From NCBI GenBank assembly GCA_000004695.1, contig CM000155.2, positions 1,536,001 to 1,600,000 on the forward strand: DNA of 64,000 bases. Reading direction: 5' to 3'. Below are positions 8,203-63,085 of this stretch, piece after piece. Position 1 is the stretch's first letter. Each line of letters opens with the position of its first letter. A model generated the notes under the pieces. It worked only from the letters and a program-made list of their open reading frames with translations. It searched no databases and was not told the origin of the DNA. A program made the position numbers and the translations under genes. The stretch is from Dictyostelium discoideum (taxonomy: Eukaryota).

Positions 8203-14722
<6,520 letters not shown>

Positions 14723-47729: not shown

Positions 47730-48311
47730 TTAATCCAAAATGGAACCTAAATATGGATTATTATAGGTATTATTATTATTTTGATTATTATTATTATTAT
47801 TTTGATTATTATAATTATTGTAGGAATTATTTAATGGTGGTGGTTGGTTATATAAATTTTGTTGATATGGTTGTTGGTATGGTTGTTGATATGGTTGCTG
47901 GTATGGTTGTTGTGGTTGTTGTTGTTGCTGATTATAGGGTGATGGAACTGGAATATTATAAACAGCTTTTTGATTACTATATAATAAAGGTGGTGGAGAC
48001 ATCATTGGTTGTAAAGGTTGTTGAAGTGCAAAATTTGTTGGTTGATAAACAGATTGGGGAATTGGTTGTAAAGGTGGTGGTTGTGATTGATAAACAGATT
48101 GGGGAATTGGTTGTAAAGGAGGTGGCTCTCTACTTTGATAACCATTACTACTATTACCCCATGAATCGATTAATTGTAAATCATGATTAATTGGTTGTGG
48201 TGGTGGTTGTTGTAATTGTTGATTATAGTTTGAATTTGGATTTAAATTACTTTGATGAATTGGTTGTAATGGTGGAGGACCGCTATTATAAAGATTTGAA
48301 TTATATTGAGG

Positions 48312-48394
<83 letters not shown>

Positions 48395-48653
48395 GATATT
48401 GAGTTGAATTTTGATTCGGTATTAATAATTCCATTTTTGATTGATTACTATTATTATTTTCATTAAAAGATTGTGGAACTGGTGAAGATCTACCTTTTCT
48501 TGGATCAAATTGATCATCAAAAATTGGTGAATGAGCACCTGATGGTGATGATGAGCTACCAATACTATTAGTATTATTAAATGAGGATGATGGAGAGGAA
48601 GATATTTTTCTTCCACCACCGGATCCGGTCATCTTTTGAAGGTTAACTGTTTC

Positions 48654-48702
<49 letters not shown>

Positions 48703-51700
48703 GTTGGTGGTATTTGAATTGGTTGAGGTAACATTGGTAATGGACGTCCTGATGATAATTTTCTTGGAGGAACACCATTACTACCACCACTTGCAACAAG
48801 TGTATTATTACTGTTATTAATATTATTATTATTATTATTATTATTACTATTTAATGAATTCTTTCTAGTTGTAGTTACATTTACAAGTTCTTGGTGATGT
48901 TGTTGTTGTTGAATGGTATTATTATTAGTATTACTAATTTGATTGGTTGAAGTTATTTGATATTGAATATTTGTTGTATTTGATCTACCTTTTTGTAAAT
49001 TTGGAGTTGAAGCAGATTGTTTAATTAGTGTAAGTTGTTCAAATTCTTTAGTGATTAAATTTGCACCATCTTTACCATTTTGATTAGTTGTGTTGATAAG
49101 ATTATTGGTACTTTGAGAGGTAGTGATGAATTGTGAAGATTTTTGTTCGTATAATTCTTGACGTAATGTTCTTTCTTTATCTTTATCGATTTTAGTGACT
49201 TCCAATTGAAAGTAAGAACTTACAGGTCTATGATCAGAAGCTAAAATCTCTTGTCTATGATAATAGAGTTGACGTAAATCATGATGAACTTTATTACTCC
49301 AAACGATTCTATCAGTCCAAGCTGGTGATCTTTGTTTTTGAGAAGTATCATATTGAGTGCTATTTAAATCATACTTATAAGTTGGAGGGAAAGCGATTGT
49401 CTCCTCCCTATAACCATTGAAAACTCTACCTGCTTCCATACATTTTCTAAGTTGATCATAGTTGTAAAGTTTTGGAAACTGTTGATCATAGACACATCTT
49501 CTAATTTCTTCATCGGGTAAGTCAATTCTAAAATTGAAATCACCCAACCAAAATGAATAATCTGAATCAGAGACCTTGAATTGACCTTGACGACCAAAGG
49601 CCAATGTTGAATCGATCTCACGGAAATCGGAAATACGATCTTCAACATTGGATTGACCAGCAGCGAAATGAGCCGTGACAAAGGTGAAGGAGGTATCGCT
49701 GAACAATAAACGTACACCAATTCCACCCTTATTACCAGCCAAGCCATTCATACCACATTTGACATTTTGAATTTGTACCTCTCTAAAATAGTGTATTGCA
49801 TCCTCACGTACATAGATTGCCATTAATAAACCTACCAATTGTGATGATTGTAATTTGATATACTTTACATTGGGTGATACTTTTGGAAGTGCACGTTCGA
49901 TTGCATCCTCCCATTGTTTACCAATGGATGAATCTGTTGCTAAAATCTGACCAGCCGTTAACTCCACCACCTCTTGTAGACCTAAAACGTAGAAATCCGG
50001 TGTTGGACAATTGGCACCATCAGGTCTTAACCATTGTACCAAATCAAAGTATGATGAATGTACACCACCAACATTATAAGTACCAACGAAAACATTCCTC
50101 CATTCTTTTTTCGAATATTCTTTAACTCTATCTTGAACTTGTTTTCTAATATTATCATCATGACCACTACCATTACCACCATTACCACCATTACCATTAT
50201 TACTATTATTGACAACCATTGATTTATGTAAACCTAACAATAGATCTAACACATCCTGTCTACCTGGATCTTTGAAATTATTGATATAGAAACGAGTCAT
50301 TGTTTTTTTACCATCTGCCAACATACCCATTATACCATAATCACCCTCACGTGTTAACGTTGATTTCAATGAACCTGAACCTGCATATTGAATCGACAAT
50401 GCATCACCATTATCTGCCCATGTTGTCTTTAATGTTTGTGATACACGTGGATAACTACCAATAGAATCATGACCTCTAAATAATCCTAACTTTCTTAGTT
50501 GACTTTCAAATAATACCCAACTAACTCTTGATTGTACAATATTAGTTCTATCCAAACAATCTTTACAATTTGTACGAATTATACCATTTTGTTTTGAAAT
50601 GATTTGACCATTTGAATTTTGAAAGAAATAACCAACAATTTTTTCACTAACGCCACCAGTGGTACCACCACCACCACTAATTGATTGATTATCAATATAA
50701 TTAATTAAAGAATCTAAAGGATCCATTCTATTACCTTTGGTTTGTTCATTTAAATCGAAATGATTATAGAAAACTTGTGGTGAACGTAATATTCTAATTT
50801 GTTCTTCATAAGCATTTACAAGATCACATTCACCTGATTTCAATTTTGAGAGTAAATTAACGATTACAATATTACCATACTTTTTAGTTTGTTCTTTAAG
50901 ATGCAATTGAAAAGCTGGTGTTGTCGCTTGAGTATTTCTAGCGATTGTAATCTTCTTTTTACTAATTTTACCAATTTTCGATAGATTCGACATTTTAATC
51001 TTTAGATCAGACATTTGTGGTGATGATTGATTCCAAAACACTGGTACAGAACCTCTAATTTGTAAGAATGCCAAAACACCATAACTTTCAATCGATAAGA
51101 TTTGTTCAGATTCACAAAAGTTTGCAACATTACCATCATCATCGATACCACGTGTAACGAATCTAGTACCAGCTCTAAAACGACTTCTTCTCGAAATCAA
51201 TGTGTAAACTACATTCTTTCCTTGAATATGACCGAGATGATCGGATACTACAAAACCTTGTATAATTGGGAAACACCAATCGTATAATCTATATGCTATG
51301 AAATCCTTTTGTAAATATTTATTCCAATAGAATCGCTTATCAACACGTTCCCATACTGGTAAATCCGATTTTGGCTCCAAACATTGACTTTGATAAGTAC
51401 GAGTTATATCAAAACTACTATTTGGTGGTGTCCAATAAAAGTGTCCACTATTCAATAAATTCATAACTTGAACATATGGTCTATCATCTTCTTTTGATTC
51501 TCCATTACCACTACCACCTCCACCACCACCTCCTCCTATTGATATATGCCCTCTACCAGTTTGAAATGATATAAAATCTGTACATCTAATCTTTCTAATA
51601 ACATTTGGTTGTCCTTGAAATTGAAAATTTGCCGCTATATCACTTTCAGTTACAACTACTAAATAACATTCTATTATTTTTTATTATAAAAAAAAAAAAC

Positions 51701-55934: not shown

Positions 55935-56144
55935 AAAAAAAAAAAAAAAAAAAACTAAAAAAAAAAACTAAAAAAAGAAACCCAATACAAACATGTAATT
56001 AAACAATTACACTATTTGTAAAAAAAAAACAATATTAATAATAAAAATAACTGTATAAACAATCTCTTTTTTTTTCTTTTTCTTTTTATATTTTTTAAAT
56101 TTAATTACTTTTTTTATTTATATTTATTGATTCGTATAAAATAT

Positions 56145-56892
56145 TTAAGCAACTAAGATACAAGCACCACCGACAGCTTTGATTTTCTTTTCAGCGACTT
56201 TAGAGAAATAACGAGCTTTGACGATGATTGGTTGAGTTGGGAGGATACCGTGACCTAAAACTTTGAAGAAACCTTTTTGGGTGACATCAACAACTGGAGC
56301 AGTACCGTCATTCTTGGCAGCTAATGATTTTCTGACGGATTCTGGGACTAAAGTCCAGATCTTTTCTAATGAGACGGTTGGACAATGGTATTGGTTTCTT
56401 AATAAATGGAAATGTCTCATACCTAATTTACCGAAATAACCTGGATGGTATTTGTCAAAGTTAATTCTGTGATGAGTGAGACCACCAGCATTACCACGAC
56501 CACCTGGATGCTTTCTGTGTTTACCAACACGACCGTAACCGGCACAAACGTCACCTCTTGATTTTCTATGCTTACTGAATCTGGTTGGCTAAATTTTAAT
56601 TATTATTATTAATTTTACATATTAGTCACTATTCTTTGTTTTGGTGTATTTTGTTTTTCATATATTTTCAAATGTAATATGAATCATAGTTTTGGTTCAA
56701 ATGTATAGTATTATTGATGTTTGATTTTGTTGTATTGGGTTTGATGATTGGTTGATAAAGGATTAACTATTTATTCTTTGACTAATTATCATTAATCTTT
56801 ATCAATCTTTTATCAATGAATGAATTCTAAATACATGACACCTAAACTAAAAAAAATATCATATACACATAGATACATGATATATATAATCC
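56145..56892 (-). CDS. rpl27a: 60S ribosomal protein L27a (uL15), 2 exons: an ATG-only exon 1 (56892..56890) and exon 2 (56586..56145)
   Basis: Exon 2 encodes [72 protein letters not shown]...VGGACILVA, matching RPL27A residue by residue from position 2. The only in-phase Met is an isolated ATG immediately followed by a GTGAGT donor at 56889. The acceptor is TTTAG|CCAACC at 56587. Confidence 0.85.
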
Positions 56893-57461
56893 TACTCACC
56901 ATTTTAATATGTGATACTGACTAACAAACGAAAAAAAAAAAAAAAGTTGAGAAAATCAATTCACCCACAGCAGTCGCGGGAATTTTTTTTTTTTTTTTTT
57001 TTTTTCAATTTTTTTTTTTTTTTTTTTTGGATAACGTAAAAATATTTTATGAGACAAGTTTGTTGAGTTTTATTTTTATTTATTTTTTTTTTTTTATTTT
57101 AAAAATCTTTAAATTATGGTGATATTCTATTTAAAACAGTTAAATTTTTTTTTTTTTTTTATTTCCTTTAATATCATTATTAAAAAAAAAATAAGAAAAA
57201 AATAAAAAAAAAGATCATGTTATTTTATATTTATTTTTATTTTATTTTTTATTTTTTATTTTTTATGTTTTAAATTTATTGTTTGATATTATTTAATTTT
57301 AAATTTCCATGTGGGATTAAAAAAAAAAAAAAAAAAAAAAAAATAGACTCAATTAGTTTGGAAATAATAATTATTTCAATATTAAAAATTTTAGAATAAA
57401 TTTGTATATAGAATAAAAAGTAATAATAAGTTTATTTCTATTTTAATTTGTAGACTAACAC

Positions 57462-57511
<50 letters not shown>

Positions 57512-57746
57512 AAAATTAAGATATCGAAAATTTGGGGTTTCCCACACGATAATTTTTTTTTTTAATTTTAATTTTAATTTTTTAATATTTCGATTAGAAA
57601 TTTCTAAAAGAAACAATGTTATTCAAAAAGAATCTTTTTTTTTTTTTTTTATCTTTAAATTTAATTTTTAAAATTGTTTTTTTTTTTTTTTTTTTTTTTT
57701 TTTTCCCAAAGATCAAAATTAATAATAATTCCTTATTATTTAAATA

Positions 57747-58763
57747 ATGGAATTACAGATTTTATCAAATTACTATGATTTTGAAACTCTATCTGGTCGA
57801 AAATTGAATATTTCACAAGAGAGTGGAGAAACTGTTGGAAATGTAAAAAAAAGAATTGCTTCAATTTTTGGAAATGATGGAGAGATTGGAAGTGATGGTA
57901 GTTTTTATTTATTACATTATGGTAGAGAATTAAATGATGATGAAATTGTTAATCAATCTTTAATTGATAGTAGTGTGGATGGCGATGATAAATTAAGAGG
58001 AAATGGTAGTAAAAAGGATAATAATAATAATGGTAAACCAATTCAAATTCGTCGTAATAGATATAGTTGTTTTGCTGAACATATGATTAATGAGCATTTA
58101 GTAAAACCATGGTCAAAATGGATTGCTAGAATTTCTTGTATAATTTTTTCAGTGTTACTAATTGCATCATTGGCACAAATTTCATTTTACCTTCCACATG
58201 CTAAAAATGTACCAGTAACATTTCAAACATTGGGTGTATTTGTAATGTCATCTTTATTAGGATGGAAAATGGGATGCTCCAGTATTATCCTTTACTTATT
58301 ATGTGGTCTTGCAGGTGCTCCATTCTTTACAAATCAGAACCATGGTGTAACTTATATGTATGGAAGTACTAGTGGTTACTTGTATGGTTTCATCGTTGCC
58401 TCTTTTATTGTTGGATTTTTCGCCGAAATGGGTAGTGATAGAGCTTATATCTTTAATTGGAAATCCACTTTGTTTTCAATGATATTTGCAAATATTGCCA
58501 TTTACATTATTGGTATTCCTGTTTTAGCTATTAAAATTGGTTGGATAAAATCATTCAAATTAGGTTTACTTCCATTTTTAGTTGGTGATGCACTTAAAAT
58601 AATTATTGCAACAATTATAATTCCATCAATTTGGAAATTCATTGCATTTCTCTCAAATAAGCGTATAATTATTAAATCTCCAACAATTAAAGATATTTTA
58701 TCTTCTTCACAATTAAAAAATGATAAAACTTCAATTGAACTAAATAATATAAACTCACAATAA
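57747..58763 (+). CDS. BioY-family (biotin ECF-transporter S-component-like) membrane protein with an N-terminal ubiquitin-like segment, single exon, 338 aa
   Basis: The C-terminal 190 aa carries BioY signatures: VPVTFQTLGVFVMSSLLGWKMG, GLAGAPFF, GSTSGYLYGFIVASFIVG, YIIGIPVL and LPFLVGDALK. Six hydrophobic helices are evident. The N-terminal 75 aa (LQILSNYYDFETLSGRKLNISQESGETVGNVKKRIASIFG...) fits a beta-grasp, ubiquitin-like pattern. Confidence 0.75.
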   Translation: MELQILSNYYDFETLSGRKLNISQESGETVGNVKKRIASIFGNDGEIGSDGSFYLLHYGRELNDDEIVNQSLIDSSVDGDDKLRGNGSKKDNNNNGKPIQIRRNRYSCFAEHMINEHLVKPWSKWIARISCIIFSVLLIASLAQISFYLPHAKNVPVTFQTLGVFVMSSLLGWKMGCSSIILYLLCGLAGAPFFTNQNHGVTYMYGSTSGYLYGFIVASFIVGFFAEMGSDRAYIFNWKSTLFSMIFANIAIYIIGIPVLAIKIGWIKSFKLGLLPFLVGDALKIIIATIIIPSIWKFIAFLSNKRIIIKSPTIKDILSSSQLKNDKTSIELNNINSQ

Positions 58764-58893
58764 CTATTTTAATTTACCAATAAATTTTTTTTTTTTTATT
58801 TTTTTTTCTCTCCCAAACAAGTTTTTTTTTTTTTTTATTCCTTTATAAATTAATTCATTACATTAAAAATATATGGATAGTATATTTTAAATA

Positions 58894-58925
<32 letters not shown>

Positions 58926-59139
58926 TGGAATGGCACCAGCTCAGTTTTTTTTTGACAATTTCTTTTTTATTTTTTTTTTTTTTATTTACATTTTTTTTTT
59001 TCTTGATGATTCCTTTATATATTAATTCATTACATTAATACTATCAGGATTCTATTTTTTAAATAATAAAAAAAAAAATGGAAAAAAAAAAAAAATAAAA
59101 TGATTAATATACTTTTTTTTTTTTTTTTTTTTTTAACTT

Positions 59140-60418
59140 TCAACATACCATATTTCTATAACAAATTGGAGATTGAACAGTTGTAGTTGTTTCAGTTACA
59201 GTTTTTGTAGTTGTAGTTGTAGTTGTCATCAACATATGTTTACATTCACTACAAACATGTTGACAATTAACATTTGGACATTTAAAATCACCTTTTGAAT
59301 AGGTGTTTTGTTGATTTCCTTTTTTTTCGGAAATGTTCATATTTTTTATATCTTCATTTAGTTTGTTTTCAATTGTATTATTCATCATTAATTGATAAGT
59401 TGATTGTTCAAATTGTTCAATTTGTTCTTCTGATAAATCAATCCATTCATCCATCCAACAAAAGAGAGATCTATGTGCTTTTAGAAATACTTCTCTTAAA
59501 CCATTGGTTTGAACTAAATTTTCAACTCTATTTTGGAATCCCCAATAATTGAAATTTACAGTTACTAATTTATAAACCACCATTGCCGGATTTACCTCTT
59601 TTCTCCAATTTGGCGATGTTAATGGACCTCTACCAGTTAATTTTGATTTAAACATTCTTGGATCTTCATCTGTTTTGACATCTTTTCCTTCAACTTCATC
59701 TCTTGCAATATCAACATGGTCTACTATTCTTTTCTTTAATATATCTTTACTTAATCCAAATACATTCTCTTCTTCATCTCTACCATCTTTATGAATAGAT
59801 TCAATACATAAATAAAACTTTTCACCAAAAAATGGGCACTTTTTTTTTTTTAATTTAAAAGAAATAAATAAATAAATAAAAATAAATAAATAAATAAAAA
59901 TAAATAAATAAATAAATAAATAGATAAATAAATAATTATTTAGTAAAACTAATTTTTTTTTTTTTTTTTTTTTAATATGTCAAAATAATTACACTATAAA
60001 TTGTTTTAGTATTTGGGTAACTATTCCAAGATTTTTCTTCAATTTTTAAAGCACTTTTTGGTAAAATTGCAGAAGCATATCTTGGTAAAGATTTTTTCAA
60101 AAGAAATACTTTGTGAGTAAATGTACCTTTTACACCATTTTTATCTGTAAATGAACTTTTTTCCAAAAGTTGAACATTATCACCTGCATTTGAAGATTCA
60201 TGGGTTTTTCTGGCTGTCATATATTTTTGACCCAACCTATATTCTTCCTTGGTAAATGGTAATGTAATTCTACTATATTTTATTTAATGGTTTTTAAAAA
60301 ATTAATATTAATTACTATACACATATATTTAATTTTTTTATTTTTTTTTTTATTATTTTTTTTTTTAACTCTAAAAATTTAAAAAAAATAAAAAAACTTA
60401 CTATTCCTTAATTAACAT
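59140..60418 (-). CDS. Phosphatidylinositol transfer protein (class I PITP), 3 exons (60418..60402, 60272..59993, 59838..59140)
   Basis: Spliced product: MLIKEY | RITLPFTKEEYRLGQKYMTARKTHESS...GTFTHKVFLLKKSLPRYASAILPKSALKIEEKSWNSYPNTKTIYS | CPFFGEKFYLCIESIH...EDPRMFKSKLTGRGPLTSPNWRKEVNP...YKLVTVNFNYWGFQNRVENL.... This tracks PITP-alpha along its whole length. Donors are GTAAGT in phase 2 and GTAATT in phase 0. Confidence 0.85.
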
Positions 60419-61520: not shown

Positions 61521-63085
61521 TTAGTTGGTTTTTTCAGTAGAGGATAATTCAACTCCGGTTGTCTGTTCTTTTTCTATTTTATCATCTTTTTCATCACCAT
61601 TTTCTTCTTGATTTTGTTCTTGGTTTCTTAAATTATTTTGTTGTTGTAGTTGTGTGTTTGGTGGTGGGATGGGCATGGAATTCAAAATTGTATTAGATGA
61701 TGTAGAATTTGTAGTGGTTGTAGTTGTGGTTGTAGTATTGGTTGGTGGTGAGTGAAGTTGATCGGATGAAAGTTGTTTTTTTGGAGTGAAATTATTTGCA
61801 TCTATAACACTTGGTGATTTAATAGTTGTTAAATCAACAGTAGGGAATAAAGTAATATTTTTAGTATCCCATTTTTCACCAGAATAATTGAAAATAATTG
61901 ACCAAACATAAGGAGTGATAAATTCAAAACTTGTTGACTCCTCTTCATATTTAAATCTAAGAATACCTTCTTGATCGGGTGGTGGAACTGGTAAAGATTT
62001 TGATTTACTTTCTATAAATGACATTATAGTTTCTGCTGTTGTCTCTTGTTGTGATAATCCATTAATTGCATGTTTTAATTCACTTGAAAAATATGAAAGT
62101 ATCTAAATAATTTTTATCATTAATTTTTATAATTATTGTTAATATTAATATTTATTTTATATTTATATATGTTTTTAATTATTTTTAATTATTTTTAATG
62201 ATTTATTATTATTATTATTAATTTATAAATTACTTACATTTAAAATATTATTAGATAAAGAAGAAAGATTTTCTTCATTTAAAAATACAGGGAAATACTC
62301 TTGTTGATGTAAAAGTGAATAAATTAAATGTGGATTTGAGTATGCTCTATAGGTGAGTGTATTATTTATAATTTGGAGTACAATATACAAAAATTCAGAG
62401 TGAGTGGTTAATTCTTCAGATTGTAATTCTTTAAGATTAAGGTCGGGTGAATTTAAAAATGAACTATTATTATGTGATTCATTGTGATGTTTGTTAATGC
62501 TGCTATTATGATTTTCTAAATTTTTAATTTGCTGAAGTTGGTTCACATCCAATGATAAATCATCTGATATCGATACTGATGACATTGATTGTGTTATATT
62601 ATTTGTATTATCTTTTACATTGTTGTTACTATTGTTTGTATTAATTTTTGATGGTGAATCAACTTGATTTAACATTTTTTTTCTTTTTTATTTTAATTAA
62701 AAAAAAAAAAAAAATATTATTAATTAGTAAATTTCAAAGTGGTGATTAGGTTGGTGGAAAAAAAAAAAAAAAAAAAAAAAAAAAAGAAAAATTCTTACAA
62801 TTTTATATATCTTTTACTTAATATTTCTAATAGTTTAACTAAACGATTTGCAACATATGGGTGAATATGTGAGATATTTGAAGATAAATTTGCTAAAATC
62901 GCTAAACAATTTGTATGTAAATGAGCATCACGTAATTTCGATAAATTTAAAATGATTGATTTTATTAATACAACCATTAAAATACCTCCTAATGAAACAT
63001 CAATTAAAAGTCTTTCTTTATACCATAATATTTGATGAACAATCTAAAATAAAAAAAAAAGATTTATTGTTAATAGAAAAGAGAG

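Follow-up and report, generated by a model that had tools for sequence, protein, structure and literature searches.

What would a biotin-capture protein of bacterial type do behind a ubiquitin-like domain in a eukaryotic nucleus, and how might it have come there? The question is raised by one gene in a stretch of 64,000 nucleotides of Dictyostelium discoideum DNA (contig CM000155.2, positions 1,536,001 to 1,600,000, forward strand), hereafter the window, whose own numbering is used throughout. The gene encodes a protein that is identical (100% identity across 100% length) to DDB_G0292424, recorded as a 'hypothetical protein' of D. discoideum AX4 and named 'Biotin transporter BioY' in UniRef. 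On balance, we favour reading it as one polypeptide composed of a ubiquitin-like domain (UBL), a junction and a BioY domain, in which a BioY of bacterial origin would work as a solitary biotin importer and the cytosolic UBL would serve as a sorting or turnover handle, or as an assembly aid. A previous sequence-only reading of the locus had described a single intron-less open reading frame (ORF), and this proved exact. The parts of the gene, as delimited by the ORF listing of the window, profile alignments and predicted structures with their predicted local distance difference test scores (pLDDT), are the following.

57747..58763, plus strand: complete ORF with ATG start, 338 codons and a stop, no intron
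57747..57968, plus strand: first part of the UBL, residues 1-74, with beta1 at 9-13, beta2 at 19-23, a helix at 30-40, beta3 at 53-57 and a short helix at 70-73 (AlphaFold2, profile, Foldseek)
57969..58031, plus strand: disordered low-complexity insert within the UBL, residues 75-95 (pLDDT <50)
58032..58106, plus strand: last UBL strand IQIRR (residues 99-103, nt 58041-58055) and junction (profile alignment, AlphaFold2)
58050-58082, plus strand: junction motif RRNRYSCFAEH, R102-H112 (orthologue alignment)
within 58032..58106, plus strand: junction helix, residues 109-117
58107..58658, plus strand: BioY S-component domain, residues 121-304 (Pfam, phmmer and Foldseek against 4DVE)
58206-58637, plus strand: Pfam BioY match, residues 154-297 (PF02632)
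58209-58229, plus strand: BioY family motif VPVTFQT, residues 155-161
58362-58391, plus strand: BioY family motif GSTSGYLYGF, residues 206-215
58584-58598, plus strand: BioY family motif GDALK, residues 280-284
58659..58760, plus strand: C-terminal tail, residues 305-338 (34 aa), basic (KRIIIK after the last helix) and then low-complexity (pLDDT <50)

Part of this is already on record. DDB_G0292424 stands in the table of candidate bacterial transfers of Sucgang et al. (2011, Table 2, PMC3188802) as 'BioY / biotin metabolism / function unknown', and the horizontal acquisition with domain accretion put forward by the sequence-only reading, supported as it is by the results below, is consequently not new as regards the transfer. 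Reviews of fungal biotin uptake cite Vht1-type carriers of the major facilitator superfamily (MFS) only, and a literature search returned no paper that refers to the UBL or its fusion, or to a BioY of other amoebae or of fungi. Public knowledge covers the gene, its annotation as BioY and the idea of a transfer; the conserved and widespread architecture appears to be undescribed.

The BioY domain

The Pfam BioY profile (PF02632) matches the translated ORF above threshold, scoring 125.2 bits (E 2.4e-36; cut-off 25) over profile positions 3-140 of 140, and all three motifs by which BioY had been recognized in the letters alone are present. The C-terminal 190 residues had been given to this domain; the identification holds and the boundary shifts, as BioY occupies residues 121-304 and is followed by a tail of 34 residues, poorly conserved past its first ~15 in the orthologue alignment. 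Scanning the protein with NCBIfam models produced sub-threshold noise only (21 bits for Sip4, whose cut-off is 240, and 12 bits for Rad23).

Regarding the fold, the AlphaFold2 model, made from an alignment of 13 orthologues, has a mean pLDDT of 71, with values of 75-92 in the helices. Its predicted six helices match the BioY of Lactococcus lactis (4dve_A) in Foldseek with E 1.7e-6 and a target-normalised template modelling score (TM-score) of 0.78, the other S-components PanT, RibU and FolT ranking after it, and 4DVE is also the sole solved structure retrieved by sequence (phmmer E 7e-9). At the level of residues, the window protein is identical at 33 of the 39 positions whose conservation among the 130 closest bacterial BioYs reaches 80% or more, and it retains the blocks typical of the family: the PVT-QT loop, G-APFF, GxxGYLxGF and PF-xGD-xK. 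Moreover, P156, Q160, G210 and K284 are unchanged across all eukaryotic UBL-BioY members, the importance of residues being judged here by conservation statistics that name no binding residues. The ratio of nonsynonymous to synonymous substitution rates (dN/dS) of the domain is 0.10-0.13 in three Dictyostelium species.

The N-terminal ubiquitin-like domain

The N-terminus is supported as a real, divergent UBL by the orthologue profiles, the predicted fold and the fold search, on which the analysis relied because the Pfam ubiquitin score of the single sequence is sub-threshold (its values are weighed with the other counter-evidence below). A ubiquitin-like segment of about 75 residues followed by a 55-residue linker had been proposed; the domain is there, its extent has to be redrawn to about residues 9-103, and most of the supposed linker is the insert 75-95 lying inside the domain, which leaves a linker of ~17 residues before the first transmembrane helix. 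AlphaFold2 lays out the UBL as beta-beta-alpha-beta-beta-(short helix)-beta, in beta-grasp order, with a pLDDT of 70-90 in its first part (residues 1-74); the same elements are present whether the full protein or residues 1-120 are modelled, these models being predictions from a 12-13-sequence alignment. When the N-terminal model was compared with the PDB by Foldseek, the top 50 of 50 matches were ubiquitin, NEDD8 or UBL domains (RAD23, BAG6), with target-normalised TM-scores of up to 0.80.

The profiles point in the same direction as the fold. A profile of 12 orthologous N-domains (A2) matches mono-ubiquitin in the PDB with E 2.5e-4 to 1.5e-3 over ubiquitin residues 3-68 or beyond, and an independent profile of non-dictyostelid N-domains (A4) matches PDB ubiquitin with E 3e-3 to 2e-2 over residues 3-73; the E-values against polyubiquitin (down to 1e-27) are inflated by its repeats and were excluded from the evidence. 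Ubiquitin is the best sequence match of both profiles, with NEDD8, ISG15 and other UBLs behind it. Compared directly by hhalign, the dictyostelid and non-dictyostelid N-domains, which have zero sequences in common, align with a probability of 96.5% (E 8e-10), the junction motif included. The Pfam ubiquitin profile PF00240 matches 6 of the 12 orthologues at E <=1 (best 2.9e-5) and none of 10 non-dictyostelid N-domains. Dsc3_N (PF10302) matches 4 of 12 N-domains, far below threshold (best E 0.017), and membership of that family is unsupported. Identity of the N-domains to ubiquitin is ~27-30%, and among Dictyostelia 43-52%.

Concerning individual positions, TLSG (residues 14-17) aligns with ubiquitin T7-G10, L56 with I44 and IQIRR with L67-L71, the profile alignment pairing I99-Q100 with ubiquitin L67-H68. 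Within the patch by which ubiquitin is bound by its receptors, the counterpart of L8 is L15, invariant in the 13 aligned orthologues (11 dictyostelid and 2 environmental sequences), and that of I44 is L56, hydrophobic in every case. The UBL core has a dN/dS of 0.19-0.29 in the three Dictyostelium species. The insert 75-95 is confined to the D. discoideum species group, the orthologue alignments showing it as missing (D. purpureum, Heterostelium, Acytostelium and others) or variable, and it is nearly neutral (dN/dS ~0.76 against D. firmibasis, over few sites).

The junction and the absence of Gly-Gly

The spacer of ~17 residues between the UBL and the first transmembrane helix carries the motif RRxRYSCFxEH, the best-conserved one of the whole N-terminal region, in which Y106 and H112 are invariant in the 13 orthologues. 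A looser pattern, h-x-h-[RKHS]-x-[YF]-[PS]-[ST]-[YF], is common to the window protein and the amoebozoan and fungal proteins. The positions of ubiquitin G75-G76 are taken by S107-C108 here and by Y-P/T-Y in the relatives, and a Gly-Gly at that place was found in no UBL-BioY member aligned, which argues that the UBL is integral and should stay attached. From these alignments, the domain would be classed as an integral (type-2) UBL and not as a modifier, and cleavage or conjugation of the ubiquitin type would not be expected.

The same features admit another account, in which the UBL would be an aid to biogenesis and topology. A bioY gene would have landed in frame behind a ubiquitin-coding unit (polyubiquitin or a ubiquitin fusion), gaining its promoter and start, and Gly-Gly would have been lost later; a fast-folding UBL and a basic junction would now serve mainly to retain the N-terminus on the cytosolic side and to support insertion and folding, with no role at ubiquitin receptors. 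A ubiquitin-coding origin agrees with ubiquitin itself being the top match of both N-domain profiles, with a last strand that is similar to the LVLRLR of ubiquitin in several members (VRMRLKR in Gonapodya, IIYLRLH in Balamuthia) and with the substitution of Gly-Gly in every UBL-BioY member; however, the window contains neither a remnant of polyubiquitin nor another ubiquitin unit upstream of the gene, and the capture scenario is purely conjectural. As for a role in topology, the basic junction surpasses the rest of the N-terminal region in conservation, an arginine stands at the V70 position and the L8 motif is lost in fungi, but such a device would need neither ~100 residues under purifying selection (dN/dS 0.2-0.3) nor a surface Leu15 that is invariant in 13 orthologues. 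This account is the main rival of the favoured reading and is regarded as rather unlikely.

Distribution in eukaryotes

All the dictyostelids sampled in a first database search have this two-domain protein: besides D. discoideum, it occurs in D. cf. discoideum, D. citrinum, D. firmibasis and D. purpureum, and further in Cavenderia, Heterostelium, Acytostelium, Tieghemostelium and also Synstelium. The Tieghemostelium protein is labelled 'Ubiquitin-like domain-containing protein' in UniRef. With HMMER, 1.84 billion representatives were then searched exhaustively, which gave 11,317 BioY proteins, the best 150 of which were examined for N-terminal coverage; among these best 150, the proteins matching into the N-terminal domain all have 281-370 aa, bar two truncated fragments. 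The named carriers outside the dictyostelids, four Amoebozoa and two early-branching fungi, are listed below.

Dracoamoeba jomungandri: Amoebozoa, Discosea; UBL-BioY carrier
Balamuthia mandrillaris: Amoebozoa, Discosea; UBL-BioY carrier
Ceratiomyxa fruticulosa: Amoebozoa, Eumycetozoa; UBL-BioY carrier
Cavostelium apophysatum: Amoebozoa, Variosea; UBL-BioY carrier
Gonapodya sp.: Fungi, Monoblepharomycota; UBL-BioY carrier
Anaeromyces robustus: Fungi, Neocallimastigomycota; UBL-BioY carrier

In total, the UBL-junction-BioY architecture is seen in at least 20 independent sequences, and none of the prokaryotic proteins among the matches listed covers the UBL, in agreement with the earlier remark that this architecture was not known from bacteria. 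The sequences therefore delineate a eukaryotic family of predicted transporters, and not a dictyostelid peculiarity. A search of the large database with the N-domain alignment A4 alone gave no match at E <=0.01, and one with the full alignment A3 left the named taxa unchanged. Some high-GC bacterial BioYs have extensions of other kinds (segments at the N-terminus that are hydrophobic or rich in Gly/Ala, or a multi-helix addition at the C-terminus), none of them UBL-like, and one bacterial match (P0066) is a tandem BioY-BioY duplication.

The fusion is also found in transcripts, and its genomic surroundings are eukaryotic in each case in which they could be read. Trinity/MMETSP transcripts of Ceratiomyxa, Cavostelium and Dracoamoeba each encode UBL and BioY. 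The gene of Anaeromyces lies on a 218-kb contig between Spb1 and thiolase genes, and its sole intron (291 nt at ~codon 108/109, MCFG01000062.1, positions 8327-8617) separates the UBL/junction exon from the BioY exon, the exon boundary coinciding with the domain boundary; an intron-less contig from run SRR12917186 fuses the two exons across these 291 nt. The position of this single intron also counts for the biogenesis account given above. Meanwhile, the gene of Gonapodya is interrupted too and adjoins an EF-hand mitochondrial carrier gene, and an environmental UBL-BioY member adjoins PARP and split protein-kinase genes.

Origin of the fusion

The nearest prokaryotic BioYs, at 30-40% identity, belong to Chloroflexota, Actinomycetota, Alphaproteobacteria, Spirochaetota and others, and with such a spread over many phyla no donor can be named. 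In a neighbour-joining tree of BioY (163 sequences, 172 columns, 200 bootstraps), monophyly of the eukaryotes is neither recovered nor rejected: the dictyostelids have 99% bootstrap, the larger eukaryotic groupings at most 28%, and the deep nodes are poorly supported. A comparison of profiles, although cruder, was informative; in it, the BioY domain alone was scored, with the query's own group left out, against a profile of the other eukaryotes and one of the 130 nearest bacterial BioYs. The eukaryotic profile scored 6-39 bits higher than the bacterial one in 22 of 23 UBL-BioY cases, the exception being the very divergent sequence of Cavostelium, and all 25 of the 25 bacterial controls went in the opposite direction, by 10-52 bits. 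Together with the shared UBL and junction, this comparison favours a single acquisition and a single fusion, after which the gene would either have been inherited vertically and lost many times or have passed from one eukaryote to another. Bacterial acquisition and subsequent domain accretion is the most economical history.

A more far-reaching proposal would see here an old and hitherto unrecognised eukaryotic family of vitamin transporters, derived from a single bacterial S-component before the amoebozoan radiation, and possibly before the split of Amoebozoa and Fungi or else passed between them, in which the attached UBL would be required for function in eukaryotic membranes without the energy-coupling factor (ECF) module. 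The UBL would there dimerise the S-component, dock it to ubiquitin receptors, or direct it to the phagolysosomal or plasma membrane. We put this forward tentatively, as a rather unlikely case.

Proposed function and mechanism

The reading favoured here comprises one polypeptide of three parts: an uncleavable, ubiquitin-derived UBL (~9-103), a basic/aromatic junction (R102-H112) and a six-helix BioY S-component (121-304). The bacterial BioY module would by now be a fully host-adapted nuclear gene, the UBL would have been gained once and early, and the fusion would persist in Amoebozoa and zoosporic fungi. Biotin would be bound on the extracellular or luminal side and moved to the cytosol without an EcfT/EcfA module. 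The UBL, on the cytosolic face, would be a handle for the ubiquitin-binding machinery of sorting and turnover and would set residence (plasma membrane versus endolysosome or phagosome) and lifetime; alternatively, it might assist assembly. As to the topology, the termini of S-components are cytoplasmic in solved structures and the membrane domain has basic residues at either end (RRNR...K ahead of the first transmembrane helix, KRIIIK past the last), so the UBL should face the cytosol. What the analysis establishes is the structure of the gene, the presence of the two domains, their conservation under purifying selection and their distribution; biotin transport, independence of an ECF module, and the orientation and function of the UBL are inferred from these.

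In S-components the vitamin is bound close to the external side of the membrane, and docking to an EcfT/EcfA module is the normal arrangement. It is debated whether and how a lone S-component carries a vitamin without the ECF motor (PMC4049904; PMC11109136). According to the account of Finkenwirth (2013) given in PMC4049904, eight out of eight solitary BioYs tested, which may act as oligomers, let an Escherichia coli biotin-uptake mutant grow without BioMN when 1 nM biotin was supplied. The closest bacterial match with readable context (P0015) has no ABC (ATP-binding cassette) or T-component genes adjacent. In the eukaryotic clade the substrate-binding motifs are kept under strong constraint, for which reason biotin import without an ECF module is taken as the most likely activity, and as a probable one.

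The part assigned to the UBL is the weakest step of the reading. Docking to sorting or turnover machinery is favoured by analogy, because L15 and L56 are conserved and the membrane UBL proteins Herp and Dsc3/TMUB1 act in this manner; the regulated turnover or trafficking suggested by the sequence-only reading is plausible.

The site of action could also be an internal membrane, where the protein would export biotin from the lysosome or phagosome or serve organellar transport, or the protein might be a biotin sensor ('transceptor') with the UBL as its output domain. Amoebae get vitamins from prey digested in phagolysosomes, which suits the former, but the osmotrophic fungi with the same fusion have no phagosomes. 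Eukaryotic organellar biotin transport has no known carrier (PMC4049904); the N-terminus, however, is predicted to be a folded UBL, hence not a mitochondrial presequence or a signal peptide. Regarding sensing, the S-component fold has been reused for it in bacterial 5TMR histidine kinases (PMC11109136), yet there is no signalling domain in the window protein, and the retention of the substrate-binding motifs as in transporters goes against both variants, which are considered improbable.

Several points weigh against biotin import by a UBL-guided BioY of single origin. PF00240, checked on the translated ORF as the sequence-only reading had advised, remains below its cut-off of 25.4, the full protein scoring 15.3 bits (E 0.017) and its N-terminal 120 aa 17.8 bits. 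In the receptor patch, H68 is changed to Q100 and V70 to R102, and the TLSG motif is lost in both fungal proteins; with only part of the patch kept, binding to ubiquitin receptors is uncertain and simple ubiquitin mimicry is not assured. Besides, a ubiquitin signal that forms part of the protein itself should promote its degradation, which is awkward for a housekeeping importer. In the BioY tree, all eukaryotes together obtain 0.5% bootstrap and form no single clade. Of the ORFs with 100 aa or more that lie at 50-64 kb of the window, none was noted as belonging to an ECF module (EcfT/BioN, EcfA/BioM), the host genome not being searched; operon logic is inapplicable to ECF partners in a eukaryote. 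Finally, the published function of DDB_G0292424 is 'unknown' (PMC3188802).

On the physiological side, a literature search on biotin auxotrophy of Dictyostelium gave nothing usable. The defined medium of D. discoideum contains biotin.

Integrity of the gene and its locus

Could the architecture be an artefact of two merged neighbouring genes, of mis-assembly or of bacterial contamination? A UBL-less product could in principle start at Met113, just ahead of the first transmembrane helix, but this start was rejected, as Met113 is not conserved in the relatives of D. purpureum and other genera have L, W or I there. The ORF is continuous and has a coding-like GC content of 27-31% along its whole length, with no AT-rich spacer inside, against 12-13% around it (500 nt upstream, 370 nt downstream). 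In addition, the same architecture recurs in the at least 20 independent sequences mentioned above, among them a second D. discoideum assembly, in which DDB_G0292424 is annotated as a single-exon gene, and two syntenic Dictyostelium genomes. The merging of two genes is effectively refuted by this composition and recurrence, and the idea that the N-terminus might be a separate upstream gene was not borne out, given the ORF without spacer and the transcripts of three relatives carrying both domains.

Contamination was likewise rejected on account of host-like codon usage, typical Dictyostelium spacer flanks and a kept gene order, as had been anticipated from codon usage and poly-A context. The UBL part has a GC content at third codon positions (GC3) of 0.08 and the BioY part one of 0.20, against 0.16-0.17 in four neighbouring ORFs. 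An artefact of any of these kinds is given next to no credence. The neighbouring genes are the following.

~56140-56930 (approximate coordinates), minus strand: ribosomal protein L27a gene (rpl27a), upstream neighbour
59018-60213, minus strand: phosphatidylinositol transfer protein (PITP) gene with a poly-Thr stretch, downstream neighbour

The C-terminal exon of the PITP gene is the ORF at 59140-59655, and the order rpl27a, UBL-BioY gene, PITP is kept in D. firmibasis and D. cf. discoideum.

A second 'bioY domain' gene of D. discoideum, DDB0168894, was listed on chromosome 2 at ~1,898,568, as putatively deleted or diverged in some isolates (Bloomfield et al. 2008, PMC2643946). The listing suggests another BioY-domain gene, distinct from that of the window, which could confound a knockout; DDB0168894 is absent from the results of the homology searches of this analysis.

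Some other features of the locus were observed. The 3' spacer between the BioY and PITP genes contains a tandem duplication of ~172 bp (58788-58958 and 58959-59130), the two copies being 83% identical in their best 102-nt stretch. Long homopolymers lie around the gene (T46 at 56983-57028, A25 at 57319-57343, A53 at 57463-57515, T28 at 57677-57704 and A27 at 58899-58925), and, compared with another D. discoideum assembly, the window has 25 additional nt in the upstream spacer. Farther away on the minus strand, an ORF of 1244 aa at 47730-51464 has Sac1-homology and inositol-polyphosphate 5-phosphatase domains (synaptojanin-like), followed by a very long polyQ/polyN/proline-rich tail, and an ORF at 62223-62675 resembles the C-terminal part of Dymeclin (PF09742, E 1.4e-9), presumably being one exon of a larger gene.

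Significance and comparison with known systems

Judged by its distribution, the acquisition of BioY goes further back, and extends to more groups, than 'before the radiation of group 4 dictyostelids' (PMC3188802), which revises the list of transfers into Dictyostelium. A eukaryotic clade with BioY under strong purifying selection, and with an extra, presumably cytosolic domain in the place of any known partner, offers a tractable system, as Dictyostelium is well suited to genetics and strains of E. coli for complementation are available. As far as the literature search showed, this would be the first nutrient transporter with a permanently joined UBL, a point of relevance to the ubiquitin-dependent sorting of transporters. 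If the tentative proposal of an old vitamin-transporter family were true, it would provide the first functional eukaryotic ECF-type S-component and a natural experiment on transport by solitary S-components.

Among known systems, SMVT/SLC5A6 of animals and the MFS carrier Vht1 of yeast presumably share the role of the window protein, that is, high-affinity biotin uptake in organisms dependent on external biotin; however, their fold and energy coupling are unrelated to those of BioY, and there is no homology. Ubiquitin-ribosomal protein fusions and polyubiquitin resemble the window gene in having a ubiquitin unit in frame before an unrelated protein. Those natural fusions are cleaved after Gly-Gly, whereas the UBL of the window protein has diverged and lacks Gly-Gly, and its cleavage is not expected.

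Dsc3/TMUB1 and Herp (HERPUD1) have the same layout, with an integral UBL without Gly-Gly and then transmembrane helices. They are a precedent for a UBL as a docking site at the membrane, although these proteins are adaptors of endoplasmic-reticulum-associated degradation (ERAD) or of Golgi E3 ligases, and the window protein is a predicted transporter.

The L. lactis BioY 4DVE, an S-component of a group II ECF system, is the best structural and sequence match of the window protein among solved structures, with ~24% identity; it differs in using a shared ECF module and in having no N-terminal domain. The bacterial solitary BioYs provide the most likely mode of action, as they have the same PF02632 family, predicted six-helix fold and conserved motifs as the window protein, and no adjacent energising genes. 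In contrast to them, the window protein is eukaryotic and nuclear-encoded and carries at its N-terminus a UBL of ~100 aa, predicted to be cytosolic, and a conserved junction, both missing from the prokaryotic matches listed; transport by it is predicted from its sequence.

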